A stretch of 64,000 bases of DNA from Minisyncoccota bacterium (GTDB lineage: Bacteria > Patescibacteriota > Minisyncoccia > Phycocordibacterales > UBA6065): contig DAORIX010000001.1 in NCBI GenBank assembly GCA_035438745.1, positions 3,075-67,074 of the forward strand, in the 5' to 3' direction. The position numbers and the translations under genes are program-made. Below the pieces are notes generated by a model, which worked only from the letters and a program-made list of their open reading frames with translations, did no database searches and was not told the origin of the DNA. Shown here piece after piece: positions 1-38,667 of this stretch (its first letter is position 1; each line of letters starts with the position of its first letter).

Positions 1-740
1 ATCACATGGAGGGACACATACTCATTTCACTTCTTGGGCAAGAAAAAGAAAAAACTGTTTCTGCTCCCGCTACACGCTACACCCTACACACTCTCACCTA
101 TCCCGCCCTCGCACTTCTCATATCAGGAGGTCACACCGAACTCGTACACATGGAAAAAGAAAAATCCTACACCGTCGTAGGCCAGACGCTCGATGACGCC
201 GTCGGAGAATGTTTTGATAAAATAGCTCGCACTCTTTCGCTCCCCTATCCTGGAGGACCAGAAATATCGCGCCTTGCAGACATAGCACGCACAAACAACA
301 TACACTCACCAGAAAAACTCCCTCGACCCATGCTTCATTCGGGCAATCTTGATTTTTCTTTTTCGGGACTCAAAACTGCGGTACTCTATCTCACACAAAA
401 AATCGGTACCCTCACCGAAGAAGTAAAACAAGGAATCGCGCGAGAAGCCGAGGAAGCAATCACCGATGTAATCATTGCAAAGACACGCAAAGCAATTGAA
501 ACCTACGGCTCAGAAACACTCATTATTGGAGGAGGTGTTATTGCAAACGCACACCTTAGGGATGCGCTCACAAAACTTGCCCAAGAAAAAAATATCACCT
601 CTCATATTCCACTCATTTCTCACTCAACAGACAATGCGCTCATGATAGCGCTCGCAGGCTACCTGAATCGAGACAAGGCACAGACAGGAAATACACCTAT
701 ACAAGCGCAAGGAAATCTCCGTATTGATACGACCGCCTAG
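1..740 (+). CDS. tsaD: tRNA N6-adenosine threonylcarbamoyltransferase TsaD (Kae1/YgjD family), 5'-truncated by the window edge
   Basis: Motifs LLISGGHTEL, DDAVGECFDKIARTLSLPYPGGP and LIIGGGVIANAHLR are typical of the TsaD C-terminal half; the ORF runs to the window start. Confidence 0.8.
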   Translation, partial: HMEGHILISLLGQEKEKTVSAPATRYTLHTLTYPALALLISGGHTELVHMEKEKSYTVVGQTLDDAVGECFDKIARTLSLPYPGGPEISRLADIARTNNIHSPEKLPRPMLHSGNLDFSFSGLKTAVLYLTQKIGTLTEEVKQGIAREAEEAITDVIIAKTRKAIETYGSETLIIGGGVIANAHLRDALTKLAQEKNITSHIPLISHSTDNALMIALAGYLNRDKAQTGNTPIQAQGNLRIDTTA

Positions 741-13107: not shown

Positions 13108-13228
13108 ACTTCTTGTATCTCTATAAATACTGCTAATAATGTCTCATTATTATAGATGACACGTGAGCATATAACAATGTGCACAAATACACAGAAAACA
13201 TCCACCCGTTAAGGTGGATGTTTTCATG

Positions 13229-13584
13229 TTGTAAGCAAGCTTATAAGCCGAATTCTGTTCTTGTCGTAAAACAAGCGATAATTATTTATCTAGGATGTAC
13301 GTTGCCGTACACCTCAAGCGACTCTCCTCATGCACGAAGCATGAGGCACGGTCTTGCACTCAAGTAAGGGTTTTGCCGTTGCACCTCCTTTGTTACCAAA
13401 GGATCTCATCCCCGAAGGGATGCTGTTGTTCATTTCGAACACCAGCGTCTCTGTTCGCACCTCGAGTATTTCTCTCGATAGGTATTACCTACTACCCTGC
13501 TCCCGCTATTAAACGGGGAGTGTTCGGACTTTCCTCACCTCACATCTATTGCTAGATACGGGGCGCAATTATCAAGCTTACCTC
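13229..13584 (-). ncRNA. rnpB: RNase P RNA (rnpB), bacterial type; ends approximate
   Basis: Minus strand carries the P4 5' strand GAGGAAAGTCCGAAC and the P4 3' strand ACAGAATTCGGCTTATAAGC, plus GGTAACAAAGGAGGTG. P1 is GTAAGC/GCTTAC. A TATAAT -10 lies 7 nt upstream and a hairpin plus T-run terminator (13197..13224) downstream. The overlapping + ORFs 13179..13367 and 13295..13555 are spurious. Confidence 0.8.
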
Positions 13585-13589
13585 CCATA

Positions 13590-13595
13590 ATTATA
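13590..13595 (-). promoter_or_regulatory. -10 box (TATAAT) of the rnpB promoter
   Basis: Minus-strand TATAAT 6-7 nt upstream of the predicted P1 5' end. Confidence 0.4.
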
Positions 13596-13606
13596 CCACC
13601 AAAACA

Positions 13607-13648
13607 ATAAAAAATCAAACACCTTTTAGTGTTTGATTTTTTATGAAT
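13607..13648. terminator. hairpin terminator downstream of nrdJ
   Basis: atcaaacac-cttttag-tgtttgat flanked by an A-run and a T-run. Confidence 0.5.
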
Positions 13649-19353: not shown

Positions 19354-20250
19354 TTAAGCACCAATAGACTTTTTTGTCAACAGCACCGCACCCTCTTTTG
19401 AAGAAGCAACAGCAATGAATCTTTTTGTATGACAAAACAATGCGCCCGCAACTCCTGACACTGAAACAAAATCATTCCCTGTTTTTCCCGCCCAGGCAAG
19501 CGGAAAAGGTTTGCGTAATTCAAATGTTTTTCTCTCACGTGCCACAGCATGTACTCCCCAGGTAACCATGTCCTCTCGAGGCATAACAACATAGAGCGGT
19601 TCAGGAAAATCAATGAGTGCTTCCTTCCATGGTAAATAACGATCAAAAACTATAACCCTTTTGTCTGGCGAAGACGTGTATACACGTCTCACCTCATCAA
19701 GCGCCTCAAGAGAATCTTTATTTTTTATAATCTCCCTCATGAGAATGTGCTCGGCAAAAGTAACCGCCTTCATAAAACCCTCATCACTCCGTGAATCTGT
19801 TTCCTTCCATGTCGCGCTAAAAGTACCAATACAATCCTGAATAGTGTACGGGTACACTCCGTTAGAAAAAGGAGGTGCGTCGTAAGCGCCGTTATCAATA
19901 ATATCGATACTCTCAACGAGCTTTTCTTCGATGCGTCGAGCAACTACAGGGGAACCACAGAGCGCTTCTCCATAATGTTTCCAAACGAGGCCAAAGGCAG
20001 CATAAGGAGAGCCATTGGGACGCGGTGCGGGCGCGCCTTCTTGATGATGATCAAAACGTCCCTGCTCTGGATTGTACTCTCCGCCAACATCAACAAGAAC
20101 ATCTGCTTTTTTCCAATCTTCTTTGTTTCGAGAGCGTCGTACTGAAATAGCGCCTCTATGCAAGAGTGATACGGTTGCCACCGCAAAAACATCATCAGCA
20201 TGAAATGACCCGTCATGAGTAACTACTGTGCATTTCTTTTTAAAAAACAT
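19354..20250 (-). CDS. MYG1/UPF0160 family metal-dependent hydrolase
   Basis: N-terminal VVTHDGSFHADDVFA signature of the MYG1 family; about 300 aa. Confidence 0.7.
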   Translation of the reverse strand: MFFKKKCTVVTHDGSFHADDVFAVATVSLLHRGAISVRRSRNKEDWKKADVLVDVGGEYNPEQGRFDHHQEGAPAPRPNGSPYAAFGLVWKHYGEALCGSPVVARRIEEKLVESIDIIDNGAYDAPPFSNGVYPYTIQDCIGTFSATWKETDSRSDEGFMKAVTFAEHILMREIIKNKDSLEALDEVRRVYTSSPDKRVIVFDRYLPWKEALIDFPEPLYVVMPREDMVTWGVHAVARERKTFELRKPFPLAWAGKTGNDFVSVSGVAGALFCHTKRFIAVASSKEGAVLLTKKSIGA

Positions 20251-20256
20251 GTTTAT

Positions 20257-20586
20257 TTAATTACGATGTGTAAGAGAGTTCACCAGAGAAACAATGAGCG
20301 CGCCCAAAAATGCAGACAAAAAACTTTCCAAAGAAAAACCCTCGATAAAATGAGCGGTTACCCAAAAGAAAAAACCATTAACAACCAAACCAAAAAGGCC
20401 GAGCGTAATAACATTTATAGGAAGCGTAAATAGCGAGACGAGGGGCTTAATAAGTATATTAAAAAACGCCAGCACCCCCGTTACGAGGAGCGCCGTGCCA
20501 AAGGTGCTCACCGTGATATCAGAAAACAAGTACGGTAAGGCAAAAATAGCGGCACTAACAATCAAAAAACGAAAAATAAAATGCAT
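20257..20586 (-). CDS. DUF360/YvlD-like small membrane protein (phage holin 4-TMS superfamily IV-like)
   Basis: 109 aa, four TM helices, no other domain. Confidence 0.5.
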   Translation of the reverse strand: MHFIFRFLIVSAAIFALPYLFSDITVSTFGTALLVTGVLAFFNILIKPLVSLFTLPINVITLGLFGLVVNGFFFWVTAHFIEGFSLESFLSAFLGALIVSLVNSLTHRN

Positions 20587-20634
20587 AAAGTGGTATGTAT
20601 AAAACGACGAAGAAAAAAACTTGTCTACTTATGA

Positions 20635-21981
<1,347 letters not shown>

Positions 21982-21995
21982 ACATTAAGAAGTTA

Positions 21996-22031
21996 CAAAA
22001 AACACCCACCAAATAATTTGGTGGGTGTTTT
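21996..22031. terminator. bidirectional terminator between eno and the convergent Cys-rich gene
   Basis: acacccacc-aaataattt-ggtgggtgt hairpin with A-run and T-run. Confidence 0.6.
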
Positions 22032-22034
22032 GAC

Positions 22035-22481
22035 TTAACAAACGACGCCAGCGTGAATTAAACGCTTGCGAAACGCTGGTCCGTACTCTTCACTAACGTG
22101 ATTAATGAAGAGGACGAGACCTTCGGTACGGCCTTCCCTGGCCCAAGCCGCTATGATCTTTTGAATCACAGCGTCTTCCTCTGCCATCTCGAGACTGGTC
22201 AGAGGGTCGGGAGGGCACTGTCCACAAACACATTCTCCTCCAGGAATGCAGTCCTTAATCGACATTTCATCGATCGGTATAAACTGTCTCCCGGGGCGAG
22301 TTTCGAGCGACTGCTCGTGCGCGAGCTCGTCCGGGTCGAACCCTACAGGTTGAGTCCATGGGGTATCAACCTTGTTGAGTTGTTTGTGACCGTCAAAGCA
22401 CTGCGACGCTCTTTCGATACGATCGCATGCTGCATCTAACTTTCGACTTCCGTCGATATCTGACAATGAACGAGAAGACAT
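22035..22481 (-). CDS. Cys-rich hypothetical protein, compositionally atypical (about 52% GC), probably leaderless
   Basis: 149 aa from MSSRS; CxxxxxC, CIPGGECVCGQC cysteine cluster. Start chosen at 22481 rather than 22544 because the divergent promoter palindrome lies at 22486..22499. No recognised family. Confidence 0.4.
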   Translation of the reverse strand: MSSRSLSDIDGSRKLDAACDRIERASQCFDGHKQLNKVDTPWTQPVGFDPDELAHEQSLETRPGRQFIPIDEMSIKDCIPGGECVCGQCPPDPLTSLEMAEEDAVIQKIIAAWAREGRTEGLVLFINHVSEEYGPAFRKRLIHAGVVC

Positions 22482-22485
22482 TTCG

Positions 22486-22499
22486 TGTATAATTATACA
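22486..22499. promoter_or_regulatory. 14-bp perfect palindrome TGTATAATTATACA carrying overlapping divergent TATAAT -10 boxes
   Basis: Sits between divergently oriented 22035..22481 (-) and gpmI (+). For the minus gene the -10 ends 10 nt from the ATG, implying a leaderless mRNA. Confidence 0.45.
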
Positions 22500-22548
22500 C
22501 CCAAAATATATAAAAGTCAATAGGTGCCCATGCGCCCTATCCATTAAA

Positions 22549-24087
22549 ATGAAGCCTTACCATCTCAAAAAACCTATGCACCAAAAACCCCAAGTAGCCC
22601 TTATTATTCTCGATGGATGGGGATATCGAGAAAACGCCGAACACAATGCTATTGCACAGGCTCACAAGCCTTTTTTCGATAGCTTATGGAAAAAATACCC
22701 CCACACCCTACTCGAAGCATCAGGTCTCCATGTGGGATTACCTCAAGGGCAAATGGGAAATAGTGAAATAGGCCATACAACCATCGGGGCAGGAAAAGTC
22801 ATCGATACTGACCTTGTACGTATTGGTAAGGCAATACAGGATAATGAATTTGGAAATTTGCCCGCCTTCAAAAAACTCTTTGATCACGTACTCAAAAACA
22901 AATCGACACTTCACGTAAAAGGACTTCTAGGAAACGGTGGTGTGCATGCTCACCAGGATCATCTCGTCGCATTTGTACGATCAGCAAAAGAAGCCGGTAT
23001 CAGTACCATAGCGATACATCTCTATACTGATGGACGAGATACAGCACCACAAAGTTCAAGCCAATTCCTAAAAGACCTCGAATCTGATCTCGAAAAAATA
23101 GGAGTGGGTTTTATCGCAACTGCTACAGGTAGATTTTATGCGATGGACAGAGACACAAACTGGGACAGAATAAAAAAAGCTGAAGACGCACTCTTTGAAT
23201 GCAAGGGTACTGTGTGTAAGCCAGGAGATATACCTTCTGAAGTGATTGCTCGTCTCCACTCCCAAGGCATTCTCGATGAACACTTGGAACCAGTTATTTT
23301 CCTTGATAAGAACGGCAAACACTATCCTATCCAAAAAAATGATGGCGTCTTTTTCTTCAATTTCCGATCAGACAGAGCGCGTCAAATTACAAAAAAAATA
23401 CTTGAAAGAGCTGAAAAAGAAAACATTGTGTTTGTCACCCTCACTGAATACGACAAGGCCTTCACCTGCCCCGTTGCTTTTCCTCCTGTATCAATAGAAA
23501 CAACACTCGCAAAAGAAATATCAAAAGCGGGTCTCTCTCAGGCGCATATTGCTGAGACAGAGAAATTCCCTCACGCTACCTATTTTCTCAACGGTGGCGT
23601 AGAAAAACCTTACCCGGGAGAAAAACACATTCTTCTCGACTCACGCAAAGACGTTAAAACACATGACCTCGCCCCAGAAATGCGCGCGGAAGCAATTGCT
23701 GAAAAAGCTATCCTTGAAATACGCTCGGGTACTCAGTTTATTTTTATAAACTTTGCAAACCCAGATATGGTAGGACACACGGCAAACAGCAAAGCGATTG
23801 TGAAAGCAATTGAAGTAGTTGATGCATCGCTCAAGGCAGTTGTTGAGGAGCTTCATAAAAACGGCGGTGTTGCTTTTGTTACCGCAGATCACGGTAATGC
23901 CGAAGTAAATACTGATCCTCTCACGGGAGAAAAACATACAGCACACACACTCAATCCTGTCCCCGCGATACTCACCGACACACACTACACACTCACATCT
24001 GGAGGCCTCGCGGATATTGCGCCAACCATACTTCATCTCCTGAACATACCTCAACCACAAGAAATGACCGGCAAGAAACTCGTATAA
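22549..24087 (+). CDS. gpmI: 2,3-bisphosphoglycerate-independent phosphoglycerate mutase
   Basis: ALIILDGWG, MGNSEIGH, metal-binding blocks (TADHGN) and 512 aa length. Confidence 0.9.
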   Translation: MKPYHLKKPMHQKPQVALIILDGWGYRENAEHNAIAQAHKPFFDSLWKKYPHTLLEASGLHVGLPQGQMGNSEIGHTTIGAGKVIDTDLVRIGKAIQDNEFGNLPAFKKLFDHVLKNKSTLHVKGLLGNGGVHAHQDHLVAFVRSAKEAGISTIAIHLYTDGRDTAPQSSSQFLKDLESDLEKIGVGFIATATGRFYAMDRDTNWDRIKKAEDALFECKGTVCKPGDIPSEVIARLHSQGILDEHLEPVIFLDKNGKHYPIQKNDGVFFFNFRSDRARQITKKILERAEKENIVFVTLTEYDKAFTCPVAFPPVSIETTLAKEISKAGLSQAHIAETEKFPHATYFLNGGVEKPYPGEKHILLDSRKDVKTHDLAPEMRAEAIAEKAILEIRSGTQFIFINFANPDMVGHTANSKAIVKAIEVVDASLKAVVEELHKNGGVAFVTADHGNAEVNTDPLTGEKHTAHTLNPVPAILTDTHYTLTSGGLADIAPTILHLLNIPQPQEMTGKKLV

Positions 24088-24117
24088 AAAAATGCCCCCG
24101 AGGGGGCATTTTTTTAT
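24086..24117. terminator. bidirectional terminator after gpmI
   Basis: aatgcccccg-a-gggggcatt hairpin followed by TTTTTTT. Confidence 0.55.
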
Positions 24118-24521
24118 TTCTTTTTAAGTTCTTCTATTTCTTTACGGAGAGCTCTAATTTCATCACGAATGTGACTAAGTCTAATCACCTCCTCTGCGAC
24201 CAATTCTTCTGTTTTCTCTTCAATTTTTTTCTCATGTCGTAATCCAGAGAGAAGTATTCTATCTCCAATAAATACCGACACCATCAGTCCTGTGAGCATA
24301 AGGAGAGATGTGGCAAGAATAACCTGAACCGGCGGATAAAAAAACCATGCAAGAAATGGTACACCTAATCGCATAAGCAGGTCTGCCGATTCCCACACGC
24401 CTCGCCAAAAGAGCACCACTCCAACGCCTCCAATAATCGAATATGGTATAGGGTGTTTTGACAAATGAATTCGCGCATAGTCTTCGACCTTATCAAAAAA
24501 ACGAATGGTATCTTTATACAT
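24114..24521 (-). CDS. hypothetical membrane protein with C-terminal coiled-coil
   Basis: Two TM helices then a K/E-rich heptad region (EEKTEELVAEEVIRL...EIEELKKK). Confidence 0.4.
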   Translation of the reverse strand: MYKDTIRFFDKVEDYARIHLSKHPIPYSIIGGVGVVLFWRGVWESADLLMRLGVPFLAWFFYPPVQVILATSLLMLTGLMVSVFIGDRILLSGLRHEKKIEEKTEELVAEEVIRLSHIRDEIRALRKEIEELKKK

Positions 24522-24545
24522 GGTTATTATCTCATTACTAAGTAA

Positions 24546-25502
24546 TTAAACAGCGCACGTCGATTGCTTACCGGACAAAACATCTATCACATTATGAGCG
24601 ACAAGCGTGCCCATTTCTGTCCGAGCCTCAAGCGTCGAAGAAGCAATGTGTGGAGTGAGAATCACATTCGGTAACTTACGAAGGCGACGGGCTATTTTGG
24701 GTTCAAATTCATACACATCAAGCGCAGCGCAGGCTATTTTTTTATTATCAAGAAAATCAATAAGTGTGTTTTCGTCGATAACTGGTCCACGAGAAGTGTT
24801 TACCAGAATTGCTGTTTCCTTCATACACGAAAGTCGTTCCTGATTTACCAAATGATGGGTTTCTGGCAAAAGCGGAGTATGGAGAGAAACAACATCAGCA
24901 TTTCTAAAAAGACCCTCGAGCGACTCTACTTTACGTGCCTGCATTTCAGTCTCAAGTTCTGCGCACACGACTGTATCAAAATAAATAATACTCATTCCAA
25001 AGCCTTTGTTCATAATACGCGCAGTTTGTCTTCCGATATGTCCCGCACCAACAATACCGAGAATTTTTCCCTGGAGATCCCTACCCAAAAATATGTGAGG
25101 GTCCCATCCGCGATACCTGTCCTCACGAACAAAAGCATCAGCAGAAACAATTCGTTTTGAAGCGGCCAGAATCAAACCCGCAGTAAACTCAGCGACAGAA
25201 GGTGACACGAGAGGCGTGTTTGTAACACATATCCCTTTTGATTTTGCATACGCAACATCAATATTGTTAAACCCTACTGCATAGTTGGCAATCACCTTCC
25301 CCCCAAAAGCATCAATAACCTCCTTATCAATAGTATCTGTCAAAAAAGAAATCATTCCGTCATACTTTCCCTTGAGCAGAGCCTTTACCAAACGAGGTTT
25401 GGTGAGCCCTTGCTGATCATGTCCTACCTCAACGGTATACCCTGCACCTTTTAAAAGTTCCTCGACAGGAGCAGGTATCGGACGAGTTATAAATATTTTC
25501 AT
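24546..25502 (-). CDS. D-isomer-specific 2-hydroxyacid dehydrogenase (glycerate/hydroxypyruvate reductase or SerA-like)
   Basis: NAD-binding GIVGAGHIGRQTA, catalytic R..E..H triad region (SRGPVIDE..., TPHIAS). Confidence 0.8.
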   Translation of the reverse strand: MKIFITRPIPAPVEELLKGAGYTVEVGHDQQGLTKPRLVKALLKGKYDGMISFLTDTIDKEVIDAFGGKVIANYAVGFNNIDVAYAKSKGICVTNTPLVSPSVAEFTAGLILAASKRIVSADAFVREDRYRGWDPHIFLGRDLQGKILGIVGAGHIGRQTARIMNKGFGMSIIYFDTVVCAELETEMQARKVESLEGLFRNADVVSLHTPLLPETHHLVNQERLSCMKETAILVNTSRGPVIDENTLIDFLDNKKIACAALDVYEFEPKIARRLRKLPNVILTPHIASSTLEARTEMGTLVAHNVIDVLSGKQSTCAV

Positions 25503-25548
25503 ATATCTAGTATATCAGAACACACAAAACGCTTACAGAGAAATATCC

Positions 25549-28086
25549 TTATTTTTGTGTCCACCCATCAGCCAAATAATCACTCAATTTTTTCCACTTC
25601 ACTTCCTTTTCTTCGCCATTTTTTACAACGACAACCTTTTCATTTCTACCTTTCTTTTCTTCACCAGAGACACGTTGTGTGCTACCTGTAGATGAAATAA
25701 TACGAGCCGCGTCTTCCATCTCTGCGCGCGCTTTTGCTTCATGAACATCCACCGTAGCTCCCAAAGAAGGGATAACACTAATAACATGAGCATTAATCGA
25801 TACAATAAGGTTTTTGAAAAGCAGAGTGCTCTCCTTTTTGTACTCAACGAGAGGGTCACGTTGACCATACGCTCTCAAATTTACTGAGCCACGCAAATAA
25901 TCCATAGCCTCAAGATGCTCCACCCACAACATATCTATAGTCTGCAAAAAAAGTGCTCGCACGTGTTTAACAAAAACATCACTGCCCATAGTTTTTTTCT
26001 TTTCCTCAATTTTTGAGAGAAAATCAGCGTCGTTAGGATCGAGAATACTGTCTAGCTCTGCGAGCACGTCAGCATCAGAACCAAGGAGCATTTTTGATCG
26101 ACGAGTATACACTGTTTTTCGATGTAAATTCATTACGTCGTCATATTCCAAAACATGTTTACGTGCATCAAAGTTGAAACCTTCGATACGATTCTGCGCC
26201 GTCTCAAGAGACCGGTTGATAATACCGTTCTGAATTGGTTCGTCTTCGGGAATACCAAAACGTCCCATCATTCTCTTGATCGTGTCCGAAGCAAAGACAC
26301 GCATAAGAGTATCCTCAAGGGACACAAAAAACTGCGTCGCACCCGGATCGCCCTGCCTACCAGCACGACCACGAAGCTGATTGTCGATACGCCTTGCCTC
26401 ATGTCGTTCGGTTCCTAGAACAAAAAGACCTCCCGCTTCTTTTACCTGCGCATATGCTTCTGGAGTTGCGGGATTACCTCCGAGTTTGATATCAACTCCT
26501 CGTCCCGCCATGTTCGTAGCAATAGTCACCGCACCGAATCGTCCCGCCTGAGCAATAATTTCACCCTCACGTTCATGATTTTTTGCGTTGAGTATTTCAT
26601 GCTTCACACCCTCAGTGCGCAAATACGCAGAGAGCAACTCGTTCTTTTCAATTGATGCTGTTCCAATCAAAACAGGCTGACCTTTTTGATTGAGCTTTTT
26701 TACAGCCTTTGCGATAGCTTTAAATTTACCAATTTCAGTTTGAAAAATAAGATCATCATGATCAATACGGGCAATGACTTTGTTAGTAGGAACAACAATA
26801 GTGGTGAGTCCATACACCTTAAAAAACTCTTCCGATGACGTCTCGGCTGTTCCCGTCATACCGGACAACTTTTTGTAGAGCCTAAAATAATTTTGATAGG
26901 TAATAGATGCAAACGTTCGCGTCTCCTGTTCTATACGTACACCCTCCTTTGCTTCAATAGCTTGATGAAGACCTTCTGACCATCTACGGCCAGGCTGCAT
27001 ACGTCCTGTAAATTCATCTACGATAACTACCTGCCCATCACGCACCACGTATTCTTTGTCTTTATGAAATAGTGCTTTTGCACGCACTGCGGTCTGTAGA
27101 TGGTGTACATATTTCACACCTCTATCAGTATAAATATTTTCAACTCCAAGAGCTTTTTCTGCAGCCTCAATACCTTTTGTAGTGAGAATAACTGATTTGT
27201 GTTTTTCTTCAACGGTATAGTGCTCATCTTTTTTGAGCGTTTCTGCAATACGCGCAAACATTGTATAAAAAGCTTCTGAATCACTTGCCGGCGCAGAAAT
27301 AATCAAAGGGGTACGTGCTTCGTCGATTAAAATAGAGTCTATTTCGTCAACAACGGCATAATTAAAAGGCCGCTGTCGTAAATCTTCCTTACGATAACAA
27401 ATATTGTCTCGAAGATAATCAAATCCAAACTCGCTGTTTGTACCGTAGGTAATATCAGCCTGATATGACTCTCGCCTGCTCACCGGTCGCAAAAACTCAT
27501 GCATCACCTTAAACGATCCCACTTCATCACGCGTCACATCGAGAGGATCACGTGACCCTTCTGTTGTTTCTGTTTTTTTACCATGAAGTGGATCATATAC
27601 GTATGATTCATTATGTCCCACAACACCGACAGAAAGACCGAGAAAATTGTATACCTGTCCCATCCACACGGCGTCTCTGCGAGAAAGATAATCGTTTACG
27701 GTAACAACATGAACACCGAGTCCTGTCAGAGCATTCAAGTACACAGGAAGCGTTGCCACAAGCGTCTTTCCTTCTCCTGTTCTCATTTCTGCAATACCCG
27801 CATGGTGAAGTATTGCTCCTCCGATAATCTGAACATCAAAATGTCGCTGACCGAGCGTTCTCTTTGACGCCTCCCTCACCACAGCGAAAGCGCGTGGCAA
27901 CAGGTCATCGAGAGATGTACCCGAAGCAAGAGCTTTTTTAAAAGAGGTGGTTTCCTCCCGAAGAGCACTATCAGACAATGCCGCTATCTCAGCTTCAAGA
28001 GCGTTCACACGCGGAACAAGGGCCTCATAAGGCTTGAGATTCCGTGCGTTTTGATCTCCAAATAGTTTCTTTAAGAATGAAGCCAT
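25549..28086 (-). CDS. secA: preprotein translocase ATPase SecA
   Basis: MASFLKKLFGD N-terminus, Walker A (MRTGEGKT), DEAD-like motor blocks, HWD/HSD scaffolds. Start at 28086 preferred over 28146; no C-terminal zinc finger. Confidence 0.9.
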   Translation of the reverse strand: MASFLKKLFGDQNARNLKPYEALVPRVNALEAEIAALSDSALREETTSFKKALASGTSLDDLLPRAFAVVREASKRTLGQRHFDVQIIGGAILHHAGIAEMRTGEGKTLVATLPVYLNALTGLGVHVVTVNDYLSRRDAVWMGQVYNFLGLSVGVVGHNESYVYDPLHGKKTETTEGSRDPLDVTRDEVGSFKVMHEFLRPVSRRESYQADITYGTNSEFGFDYLRDNICYRKEDLRQRPFNYAVVDEIDSILIDEARTPLIISAPASDSEAFYTMFARIAETLKKDEHYTVEEKHKSVILTTKGIEAAEKALGVENIYTDRGVKYVHHLQTAVRAKALFHKDKEYVVRDGQVVIVDEFTGRMQPGRRWSEGLHQAIEAKEGVRIEQETRTFASITYQNYFRLYKKLSGMTGTAETSSEEFFKVYGLTTIVVPTNKVIARIDHDDLIFQTEIGKFKAIAKAVKKLNQKGQPVLIGTASIEKNELLSAYLRTEGVKHEILNAKNHEREGEIIAQAGRFGAVTIATNMAGRGVDIKLGGNPATPEAYAQVKEAGGLFVLGTERHEARRIDNQLRGRAGRQGDPGATQFFVSLEDTLMRVFASDTIKRMMGRFGIPEDEPIQNGIINRSLETAQNRIEGFNFDARKHVLEYDDVMNLHRKTVYTRRSKMLLGSDADVLAELDSILDPNDADFLSKIEEKKKTMGSDVFVKHVRALFLQTIDMLWVEHLEAMDYLRGSVNLRAYGQRDPLVEYKKESTLLFKNLIVSINAHVISVIPSLGATVDVHEAKARAEMEDAARIISSTGSTQRVSGEEKKGRNEKVVVVKNGEEKEVKWKKLSDYLADGWTQK

Positions 28087-31556: not shown

Positions 31557-32327
31557 CTACGAAGAAAGCCCTAACCTAACTGCTTCTCTTTGCATGGCTG
31601 AGACGATATCTGTGCGTTGTTTGTCACGTTTGGACCTCATCGACTCATCATCCTCAATGAGTTGTTCAACTGGATGGACGTAGTCAACGATTACGGAATC
31701 GATGGCTACACCCCCTGTCAGAAACCACAAAAGTGGTATGAACAGGATTTCCCAATTATCACCATAGTGTATCGGTTGATATGCCGCCATTATCATGGCG
31801 GCCTGCCGATTCATGATCCGCGGTCCGATATAAAAATCAATATCGAACCTTTTTGTGATATTGCCAAGCTCCCAATTGGCCCTCAGTTCAGACCAATGCT
31901 GATACTGAGGATACCCATCGAGATTCCGTCGCCGTGGTATGACCACATCGGTAGCGCCCCTCATTACTCGCGCAATGCACGGACCAAGCAAGGGGACAAG
32001 CGTGTATTTTTCCGGCTCAAGCCAGACAAGTACCTCTGCTTCTGTCGCGAGACCAGCATTGAAACATTCGCGACGCGACTGTCCCATACCCGGCTTTTCC
32101 TGATCAATAACGGTTGCTCCAGTTTCCCGGAGAGCTTGTTTGAACTCTTCGCACGGACTACCGTCAATGACGATAATCGGATAATCGTTGTCTCGAGCAG
32201 TACGACACGTTTTAAGTGCCAGCTGTGCTCGGACCTCATCCACGCTTTTGATAAACGTGGTGGTTACCAACACTATTCGATCGTTCACAATTACCTTTCT
32301 TTTGATTATTTTAAGAACTAACCTCAA
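31557..32327 (-). CDS. hypothetical protein, possibly a divergent GT-A fold (GT2-like) nucleotide-sugar transferase; GC-rich relative to neighbours
   Basis: Pattern IVLVTTTF..(30)..PIIVIDGSP..ETGATVI..GMGQSRRECFNAGL..VLVWLEPE parallels the GT2 core, with EPE where DxD is expected. The minus strand is chosen over the antisense 234 aa ORF because the terminator is downstream on the minus strand. Confidence 0.3.
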   Translation of the reverse strand: MRLVLKIIKRKVIVNDRIVLVTTTFIKSVDEVRAQLALKTCRTARDNDYPIIVIDGSPCEEFKQALRETGATVIDQEKPGMGQSRRECFNAGLATEAEVLVWLEPEKYTLVPLLGPCIARVMRGATDVVIPRRRNLDGYPQYQHWSELRANWELGNITKRFDIDFYIGPRIMNRQAAMIMAAYQPIHYGDNWEILFIPLLWFLTGGVAIDSVIVDYVHPVEQLIEDDESMRSKRDKQRTDIVSAMQREAVRLGLSS

Positions 32328-32381
32328 TATATATTATACACCAAAACAACATCAAAGTCAATACGAACACAGTGACCCTTT

Positions 32382-32411
32382 TTGACACCTTTACATAATG
32401 GGGAGTATTAT
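32382..32411 (+). promoter_or_regulatory. near-consensus sigma70-type promoter (TTGACA-N18-TATTAT) driving the HTH gene and probably the long plus-strand glycan operon
   Basis: TTGACA at 32382..32387 and TATTAT at 32406..32411. The ATG at 32422 is about 10 nt downstream of the -10 box, suggesting a leaderless or near-leaderless transcript. Confidence 0.45.
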
Positions 32412-32421
32412 AAGCATTGTC

Positions 32422-32670
32422 ATGGTAGAAGAAATAAAACCCAACGCCGTCTATACGACAGAGGAAACAAGACAAGTCCTCCGTATTAGTGACAGCACCA
32501 TTAAGAGACTCCTCAAAAAAGGACTCCTGCGTGCAAACAAAGTTGGAGGACAATACAGAATCATGGGAAAAGAAATTTTACGAGTGGTCTCCCCTGATCT
32601 CGAGAAAGAAGCCGTAAAGTCATACCTCTCTCTCAAGAAAAAAGTAATAAAAAAAATAAACAAATGGTAA
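32422..32670 (+). CDS. excisionase/MerR-like helix-turn-helix DNA-binding protein (HTH_17-type)
   Basis: [38 protein letters not shown] matches the excisionase-family HTH. Stop overlaps the gmd start. An alternative start at 32398 lies inside the promoter spacer. Confidence 0.6.
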
Positions 32671-38010: not shown

Positions 38011-38667
38011 ATGCTCAAAAAAATATACTATTCGATAAGAAACAAGATCCTAAAATATAAAATGGGATCTTACCCTGTGTGGAATATCTACGAGGGGCAC
38101 TTTAAAACGACGTACCGTTCTATACCGATGTTAAAATGCCCTTTTGACTATGTTATGTATCAAATGATTGTGTCAAAGATACAACCAGATCTCATTATTG
38201 AAATCGGAACAAACGTGGGAGGAACAACCTTATACCTGGCTGACATCCTCAACACCCTTGGCAAAGGAGAGATCCACACAATAGATATCGATGATCGAGT
38301 TAATCCCCTAGCACGATCTCATCCACGCATAAAATGCTTTAACGGCGGATGGAAAAACTACGATCTTTCAAATACAAAAAAATTCTCAAAGATACTCGTC
38401 ATTGATGATGCGTCGCATCAATTTAAAGACACATTAGAAGCAATGGAGAAGTTTTCGAACGTCGTGTCTATTGATTCTTATTTAATCATAGAGGACGGTA
38501 TTGTTACTCAACTCAAAAGAGACAAACAACTTGATGGAGGACCTCTTCGGGCAATAGAAAAATTTCTTGAAACAAACAACAACTTCCTCGTTGATGACTC
38601 TTACTGCAATATGTTTGGTAAAAACGCAACCTTCAACACGAAAGGTTACCTAAAAAGAGTTAAATAA
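38011..38667 (+). CDS. CmcI-family (cephalosporin hydroxylase-like) SAM-dependent sugar O-methyltransferase
   Basis: LIIEIGTNVGGTTLYLADIL SAM-binding block and overall CmcI/rhamnosyl-O-MT layout. Confidence 0.7.
   Translation: MLKKIYYSIRNKILKYKMGSYPVWNIYEGHFKTTYRSIPMLKCPFDYVMYQMIVSKIQPDLIIEIGTNVGGTTLYLADILNTLGKGEIHTIDIDDRVNPLARSHPRIKCFNGGWKNYDLSNTKKFSKILVIDDASHQFKDTLEAMEKFSNVVSIDSYLIIEDGIVTQLKRDKQLDGGPLRAIEKFLETNNNFLVDDSYCNMFGKNATFNTKGYLKRVK

Follow-up and report, generated by a model that had tools for sequence, protein, structure and literature searches.

Gene content of the locus

The stretch of DNA analysed here (the window, 64,000 nucleotides) carries on its minus strand a short gene that is convergent with enolase and divergent from gpmI, from which it is separated by a 67-nt spacer. 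The features discussed below are as follows, where L020 is the locus of P0009, the most distant family member.

13228..13584, minus strand: RNase P RNA (Rfam, 116 bits), with a promoter TTGATT-17-TATAAT at 13590..13618, minus strand
21999..22031, both strands: bidirectional intrinsic terminator, between the stops of the gene (22035) and of enolase (21981)
22035..22481, minus strand: coding sequence, 447 nt including the stop codon, for a 148-aa protein
22078..22121, minus strand: most conserved predicted mRNA hairpin (coding nt 361-404, about 18 bp), in the codons for GLVLFINHVSEEYGP
22215..22250, minus strand: codons for the cysteine cluster C78-x5-C84-x-C86-x2-C89 (residues 78-89, CIPGGECVCGQC), the cluster being invariant in 10 family members including P0009
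22481..22486, minus strand: predicted transcription-start zone, 6-11 nt past the -10 box, for a leader of 0-5 nt that lacks a Shine-Dalgarno sequence
22486..22499, both strands: 14-bp perfect palindrome TGTATAATTATACA, made up of the -10 box and the first bases of the spacer between it and the ATG
22492..22497, minus strand: -10 hexamer TATAAT (promoter scans), invariant in 10 loci, TCTAAT in L020
22515..22520, minus strand: -35 hexamer TTGACT (promoter scans), invariant in 10 close loci, TTGACA in L020

With its own promoter, ATG, stop codon and terminator, the gene appears to be a complete single-gene unit. A preliminary description had drawn attention to the palindrome, the base composition and the cysteines of this segment. 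The features it named are all present, and its observation as a whole is confirmed; its interpretations fared less evenly, as discussed below.

Coding status and protein product

The 148-aa frame is clearly under purifying selection, with dN/dS of 0.15-0.19 against each relative, though these values exceed the 0.01-0.09 found for the neighbouring genes. Indels in the nucleotide alignment of the homologues all have lengths divisible by 3. In each of the 11 loci the sense frame is open, unlike the other five. An antisense candidate at 22098..22439 was rejected, its frame being interrupted in the relatives, where the longest open stretch is 51-95 codons as against 125 in the window. Given the dN/dS values, the indel pattern and the broken antisense frame, the open reading frame is a genuine protein-coding gene. 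The preliminary description had allowed for the opposite outcome, with a conserved antisense frame and a non-conserved sense frame; it is the sense frame that has been kept.

The start codon is ATG at all loci. The start at 22481, preferred in the preliminary description, agrees with the recorded gene calls, which begin at the equivalent position in the loci checked with the sole exception of L022 (protein P0002), where the call lies three codons upstream. A longer, 169-aa reading from 22544 was set aside: its start precedes the conserved -35 box, and nothing equivalent exists in L004 or L020. The product thus called is 148 residues long, the previously given length of 149 having counted the stop; the cysteine cluster attributed to it is indeed there.

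Judged from its sequence, the protein is acidic (pI 4.9) and hydrophilic, with an N-terminus that is not hydrophobic. Seven residues are invariant in all ten family members (C19, H32, H55, C78, C84, C86 and C89), as are the motifs SQ.FDGH.Q and DP..HE..LE, and the spacing of the cysteine motif across the family is C-x4/5/8-C-x-C-x2-C. Other parts of the protein vary considerably: residues 35-48 occur in two unrelated allelic forms, and residues 62-77 are deleted in two family members. AlphaFold models the full-length protein poorly (pLDDT 65), with pLDDT below 50 at residues 27-48, about 57-66 at residues 62-77 and a low-confidence 51-58 in the cysteine region. The C-terminal half modelled by itself forms a three-helix bundle whose helices have pLDDT above 90, and fold comparison of the protein returned generic three-helix-bundle matches only, none of them informative.

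These observations suggest an acidic protein of the cytoplasm in which an N-terminal helix and an SQ(C/R)FDGHKQ motif are conserved, two linkers are variable and probably disordered, and an invariant Cys4 cluster precedes the C-terminal three-helix bundle. The Cys4 cluster most likely holds a metal, either zinc or an iron-sulfur cluster, and the bundle may serve as an interaction module, which together would give a small metal- or redox-dependent adaptor or regulator. We infer a cytoplasmic, metal-binding protein with a helical interaction module on this basis, the sole ground for metal binding and for any regulatory role being the pattern of invariant cysteine and histidine residues.

Several known regulators offer a comparison. 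Like the WhiB-like proteins, the zinc-binding anti-sigma factors and SoxR, the protein would be small and cytoplasmic, with four closely spaced invariant cysteines followed by a helical module; unlike them, it has a different motif order and spacing, and there is no sequence or fold similarity to any of the three. MerR, WhiB and anti-sigma domains are absent from the 148-aa protein. WhiB-like motifs have the form C-xn-C-x2-C-x5-C followed by a G[VI]WGG turn. A WhiB-like identity was rejected, as there is no Pfam or NCBIfam match at E values up to 1, the cysteines are arranged as C-x4/5/8-C-x-C-x2-C, and no GVWGG is present. The zinc-binding anti-sigma motif is H-x3-C-x2-C; here the place where H would be expected, three before C86, is occupied by G, A or E, and with no Pfam match this domain was rejected as well. 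The C-terminal [2Fe-2S] motif of SoxR is C-x2-C-x-C-x5-C, of which the C-x5-C-x-C-x2-C found here is the mirror image. If the Cys4 site does bind an iron-sulfur cluster or zinc and sense redox state, the protein would be among the few regulator candidates of these gene-poor bacteria.

Distribution of the family

Profile searches of Pfam and NCBIfam (read up to E = 1), PHROGs, PADLOC and the PDB gave no match to the 148-aa protein, in agreement with the earlier statement that it belongs to no recognisable family. Eight protein clusters with 62-97% identity to it were found, together with the distant member P0009 at 33% identity; the family comes to about 10 sequence clusters. An exhaustive profile search of 1.84 billion representative proteins returned nothing beyond the family itself and P0009, and P0009 as a query gave no further relatives. 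A genome scan added one metagenome-assembled genome and a metagenome scan one contig, while a scan of viral contigs found no homologue. The gene thus appears to be a lineage-restricted orphan, confined to one narrow group of ultra-small bacteria of the candidate phyla radiation (CPR), and its product adds one more to the uncharacterised, lineage-restricted families.

The host is a CPR bacterium and probably belongs to the Parcubacteria/Paceibacteria type. This assignment is drawn from the adjacent 135-aa protein, whose nearest named relatives are in Taylorbacteria, Zambryskibacteria and Paceibacterota. When the origin of the gene was traced through the family of this 135-aa protein, synteny was gone in the next relatives (Taylorbacteria-like contigs). 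The sole metagenome-assembled genome with the gene, GCA_964559755.1 (L001/L014), is labelled "Candidatus Saccharibacteria", a label that may be wrong.

Every related locus recovered, L004, L005, L006 and L020 among them, has the gene convergent with enolase; in L020, the final 14 codons of an enolase gene are visible beyond the terminator. In L004, L005 and L006 (the P0008 lineage), gpmI is absent and the gene follows directly after that of the 135-aa protein, with its own promoter kept.

Promoter, translation start and terminator

The promoter scans find TTGACT-17-TATAAT, with 11 of 12 consensus matches, on the minus strand ahead of the gene. Exactly 10 nt, TATACACGAA, separate the -10 box from the ATG at 22481, and no GGAG-like motif lies within them. 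Both promoter boxes, the gap of 10 nt and the ATG have been conserved in 11 loci. The arrangement in L020 is TTGACA-17-TCTAAT-10 nt-ATG, with a spacer sequence entirely different from that in the window. From the invariance of the gap in these 11 loci and the usual distance between a -10 box and the start of transcription, we place the predicted start zone at 22481..22486. Reading these elements as a sigma-70-type promoter is validated by the RNase P RNA in the window, whose Rfam-defined 5' end (13584) lies 5 nt past the TATAAT of a promoter of the same type.

The leaderless mRNA proposed in the preliminary description is thereby well supported from comparative data, in the form of an mRNA that would have either no leader or one of at most 5 nt. 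In mapped leaderless genes, the gap from the -10 box to the start or ATG is typically about 6-7 nt. As the 10-nt gap exceeds this distance, a leader of 3-5 nt, with transcription beginning at conserved purines 6 or 8 nt past the -10 box, appears as likely as a 5'-terminal AUG.

The gene otherwise resembles the leaderless genes of Actinobacteria, Deinococcus and Caulobacter, which have a sigma-70-type -10 box at a fixed short distance before the ATG (PMC8459731, PMC3898074) and likewise combine an AUG start and no Shine-Dalgarno sequence with a 5' end that is cheap to unfold. In Caulobacter, such a 5' end marks the class most favourable for leaderless initiation (PMC8459731); unfolding of the first 18 nt is predicted to cost about 0.1-5.1 kcal/mol in six homologues, which counts as an accessible 5' end by the criterion of that study. 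The difference lies in the gap: it measures 10 nt for this gene and 8-11 nt for seven others in the window, so that the mRNA may carry 3-5 extra nucleotides relative to the mapped leaderless genes. In the organisms in which this has been tested, short leaders reduce leaderless translation (PMC8459731).

As a special feature of this gene, however, leaderlessness does not stand, for the genome is nearly free of Shine-Dalgarno sequences. A GGAG- or AAGG-like motif is found upstream of about 5 of the 53 gene starts in the window, and -10-like hexamers peak 8-11 nt before the ATG, where eight of 52 genes have one (starts at 2197, 16762, 18213, 22481, 29177, 32422, 54106 and 58475). This suggests that leaderless or very-short-leader expression may be widespread in the genome. 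A literature search on leaderless and Shine-Dalgarno usage in CPR bacteria returned nothing directly relevant. The locus, with its consensus promoter, fixed 10-nt gap and ATG, offers a clean comparative example of expression in a genome of this kind.

Downstream, the terminator hairpin has a predicted dG of -23.7 kcal/mol (z -6.8). An A-run precedes it and a T-run follows it on the minus strand, and hence we read it as bidirectional. A compensatory C-G to U-A change is seen in its stem in L001 and L007 (ACACCC...GGGTGT to ATACCC...GGGTAT). In L020, a different hairpin with a T-run occupies the equivalent place.

Expression of the gene can accordingly be pictured in simple terms. RNA polymerase with the housekeeping sigma factor would start at the near-consensus TTGACT-17-TATAAT (22520..22492), and the transcript would begin 0-5 nt ahead of the AUG at 22481, with no Shine-Dalgarno sequence. 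Translation would follow the leaderless or short-leader route that much of the genome appears to use, and transcription would end at the bidirectional hairpin that the gene has in common with the convergent enolase.

The palindrome and gpmI

The preliminary description had made much of the 14-bp palindrome, as the core of a shared, possibly co-regulated bidirectional promoter for the gene and gpmI. The palindrome is present and perfect, but there is little unusual about it: the window has 6 perfect palindromes of at least 14 bp, and local shuffles have 4.7+-1.9, so that the frequency is not above chance. Only the part belonging to the -10 box is invariant among the related loci, the distal arm being TATACA, TATATA, TATGTA or TATGTG.

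The possibility that the palindrome acts as an operator, or as a shared bidirectional core promoter coupling the gene to gpmI, draws on the near-invariance of the 67-nt intergenic region in the gpmI-bearing loci, which persists despite synonymous divergence of 0.6-0.8 in the flanking genes. In addition, a 10-bp core, TATAATTATA, is kept in eight of the nine gpmI-bearing loci, and the window has a perfect TATAAT on the plus strand at 22488..22493. Yet the outer arms are variable, and at this plus-strand position L022 reads CATAAT although gpmI is retained there. No plus-strand promoter for gpmI passes the scan, the best -35 candidate being ATGAAC (3 of 6 matches) at 16 nt. The same -10 box and spacing are also found in L004 and L020, where gpmI is absent, and there is no regulator gene nearby. 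We therefore consider a role of the palindrome as operator or shared promoter unlikely, and the co-regulation previously proposed is not borne out. The signals for gpmI certainly lie within the 67-nt spacer; the palindrome does not appear to be singled out within this conserved stretch.

Base composition and mRNA folding

The G+C content of the open reading frame is 0.517, the highest of 55 open reading frames in the window (mean 0.412, sd 0.029; z about 3.6), which bears out the roughly 52% reported for the segment at the outset. The difference is also seen at third codon positions, where GC3 is 0.503 as against 0.374+-0.046 in the open reading frames of the window. Given the amino acid sequence and the codon usage of the window, the expected values are 0.473 for G+C and 0.352 for GC3, and the GC3 excess of 0.151 amounts to 5.6 standard deviations of the gene-to-gene spread. 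About half of the G+C excess thus comes from amino acid content and the remainder from codon choice.

The same offset is found in the relatives. The gene has a G+C content of 0.49-0.52 in the homologues, compared to 0.38-0.43 for the remainder of each locus (lower in the flanks of L020). In L004, where synonymous sites are saturated, the gene stands at 0.514 and the remainder of the locus at 0.382, and in L020 the values are 0.519 for the gene and 0.315 for the flanks. Since the offset survives synonymous saturation at a fixed chromosomal position, it would seem to be maintained rather than imported. The raised G+C content is thus best read as a conserved, gene-specific trait and not as a sign of recent foreign origin.

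The composition is accompanied by unusually strong predicted folding. The 447-nt coding region has a predicted minimum free energy (MFE) of -169.5 kcal/mol. Per nt this is -0.379, compared to a mean of -0.233+-0.040 for the first 447 nt of each of the other 51 genes. The figure of -0.379 equals that of the tRNAs in the window and exceeds that of the RNase P RNA (-0.342). Compared with synonymous-codon shuffles, which preserve the protein and the codon usage, the gene has a z-score of -5.2 and is the most structured in the window, the 51 other genes having z-scores of -0.39+-0.98 with a minimum of -3.6. That minimum belongs to a gene of low G+C content (0.378), 38011..38667 on the plus strand, which is the only one besides the gene discussed here to fold, over its first 447 nt, far more stably than synonymous-codon shuffles. 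Dinucleotide shuffles give a z-score of -4.9 for the gene and -2.4 to -5.7 for the close family. In nine homologues, synonymous-codon shuffles give -2.3 to -4.4, no more than 3 of the 150 shuffles reaching the stability of the native sequence in any of them, while enolase controls on the same contigs range from -1.2 to +1.2. The excess is weak in L020 (z -2.3 against codon shuffles, -1.1 against dinucleotide shuffles).

This excess cannot be attributed to one hairpin. The most conserved hairpin, at 22078..22121, appears in the predictions for every close homologue, has a mean base-pair probability of 0.85 across 10 homologues, and its pairs are mostly invariant. Covariation is modest, with 9 pairs showing double changes compared to 5.2+-1.5 in shuffles, and is to be read with the caution due to sequences that are related and recombining. 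The helices of L020 differ from those of the window. A specific conserved RNA fold was rejected on these grounds: one robust hairpin, modest covariation, and helices not common to L020. The conserved property appears to be that of being structured rather than a given fold. The antisense strand folds about as well as the sense strand in the shuffle comparison, so that selection may act on either strand. Rfam covariance models found nothing in the gene at the gathering threshold, and the sub-threshold matches are to the terminator hairpin only (E 0.13-0.69).

Alternative explanations for the composition

One alternative is a local rise in GC3 through GC-biased gene conversion at a recombination hot spot, with the extra folding a by-product of composition. 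The alignment of the homologues does show the gene to be a mosaic of allelic segments, with violations of the four-gamete test among the lineages. In comparisons with L001, L007, L009 and L013, the enolase-holin-MYG1 block (19354..21981) has a synonymous divergence of 0.14-0.38, as against 0.6-0.8 for the gene, gpmI and SecA (22035..28086). In enolase itself it is 0.14-0.25, and from this jump we infer a recombination boundary between enolase and the gene, at the 3' end of the latter. Against this explanation, gpmI has the same synonymous divergence as the gene but an ordinary GC3 (0.365, with 0.361 expected), the folding excess was measured against shuffles that preserve composition and codon usage, and about half of the G+C excess is due to amino acid content. 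Biased gene conversion is thus a live alternative for the GC3 excess, if an improbable one.

The preliminary description offered horizontal acquisition as one of two explanations, and a promoter-gene-terminator cassette from a GC-richer donor, with drift toward host composition still incomplete, would account for the atypical codon usage. Moreover, the next-closest lineages open to examination (the Taylorbacteria-like contigs) lack the family, and a second GC-rich orphan with a nearly identical promoter lies at 31557..32288. Among the marks of recent transfer, however, only the atypical composition is found; patchy presence, a variable insertion site and a link to a donor or a mobile element are not. 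The enolase-adjacent position is identical in three lineages, one of them with a protein of 33% identity, and the excess of G+C is equally large in L004, with its saturated synonymous sites, and in L020. The 1.84 billion representatives include no homologue outside the family and the viral contigs none at all, and there are no integrase, other mobility or tRNA genes at the borders of the gene. An ancient transfer into the common ancestor is conceivable, but would leave a never-equilibrated composition without explanation. The gene resembles the atypical genes of genomic islands in that its G+C content and codon usage are clearly off the genome norm, but differs from them in being at the same place, with the same offset, in all relatives with the locus, with no mobility genes nearby and no detectable donor. 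A foreign origin is therefore very unlikely. Of the two explanations originally given for the composition, the other, strong structural constraint, is the better. There is some corrective value in this, as a gene of deviating composition in a CPR genome is not necessarily foreign; the offset here appears instead to be a conserved, gene-specific trait tied to mRNA folding.

It is highly improbable that the functional product is a structured or dual-function RNA for which the reading frame is secondary: a tRNA-like G+C content and folding energy per nt, both above those of the RNase P RNA, a folding z-score more extreme than any other in the window and a conserved hairpin with invariant synonymous sites would suit one, but the dN/dS values, the indels in multiples of 3 and the single frame open in 11 loci exclude a purely non-coding RNA, synonymous sites have overall diverged as much as those of the neighbouring genes, and there is neither an Rfam match nor a set of helices common to L020.

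Proposed function of the gene and its transcript

The explanation that we favour, and consider probable, is that of a vertically inherited single-gene unit in a narrow CPR lineage, which encodes a Cys4 protein and has a structured mRNA under selection. The raised G+C content would accompany an mRNA body far more folded than the others in the window, with a first 18 nt that are cheap to open. The high G+C content and folding may reflect selection on the transcript, either for stability or for limited translation from a strong promoter.

A more specific version of this explanation, which we regard as distinctly unlikely, is that the protein represents a new metal- or redox-sensing Cys4 family in one CPR lineage and that the GC-rich, tRNA-like folding has been selected because the transcript itself matters. 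Such a transcript could be a long-lived leaderless mRNA, its body protected from RNases and its 5' end open, or it could have a second function as an RNA, linked to the glycolytic genes next to it.

Additional observations

The second GC-rich orphan in the window (31557..32288, minus strand) encodes 243 aa from a GTG at 32288 and has no Pfam match. Its G+C content is 0.49, with GC3 0.11 above expectation. Its promoter, TTGACT-17-TATAAT (32361..32333), has a spacer that agrees with that of the promoter described above at 12 of 17 positions. This orphan is divergent from an HTH_17 gene (32382..32670, plus strand), which has the arrangement TTGACA-18-TATTAT-10 nt-ATG.

In L020, the AT-rich region upstream of the homologue's promoter contains a 19-bp inverted repeat, with arms at 118..136 (TTTAAAACTCTTAAATTTC) and 205..223 (GAAATTTAAGAGTTTTAAA) of that locus.
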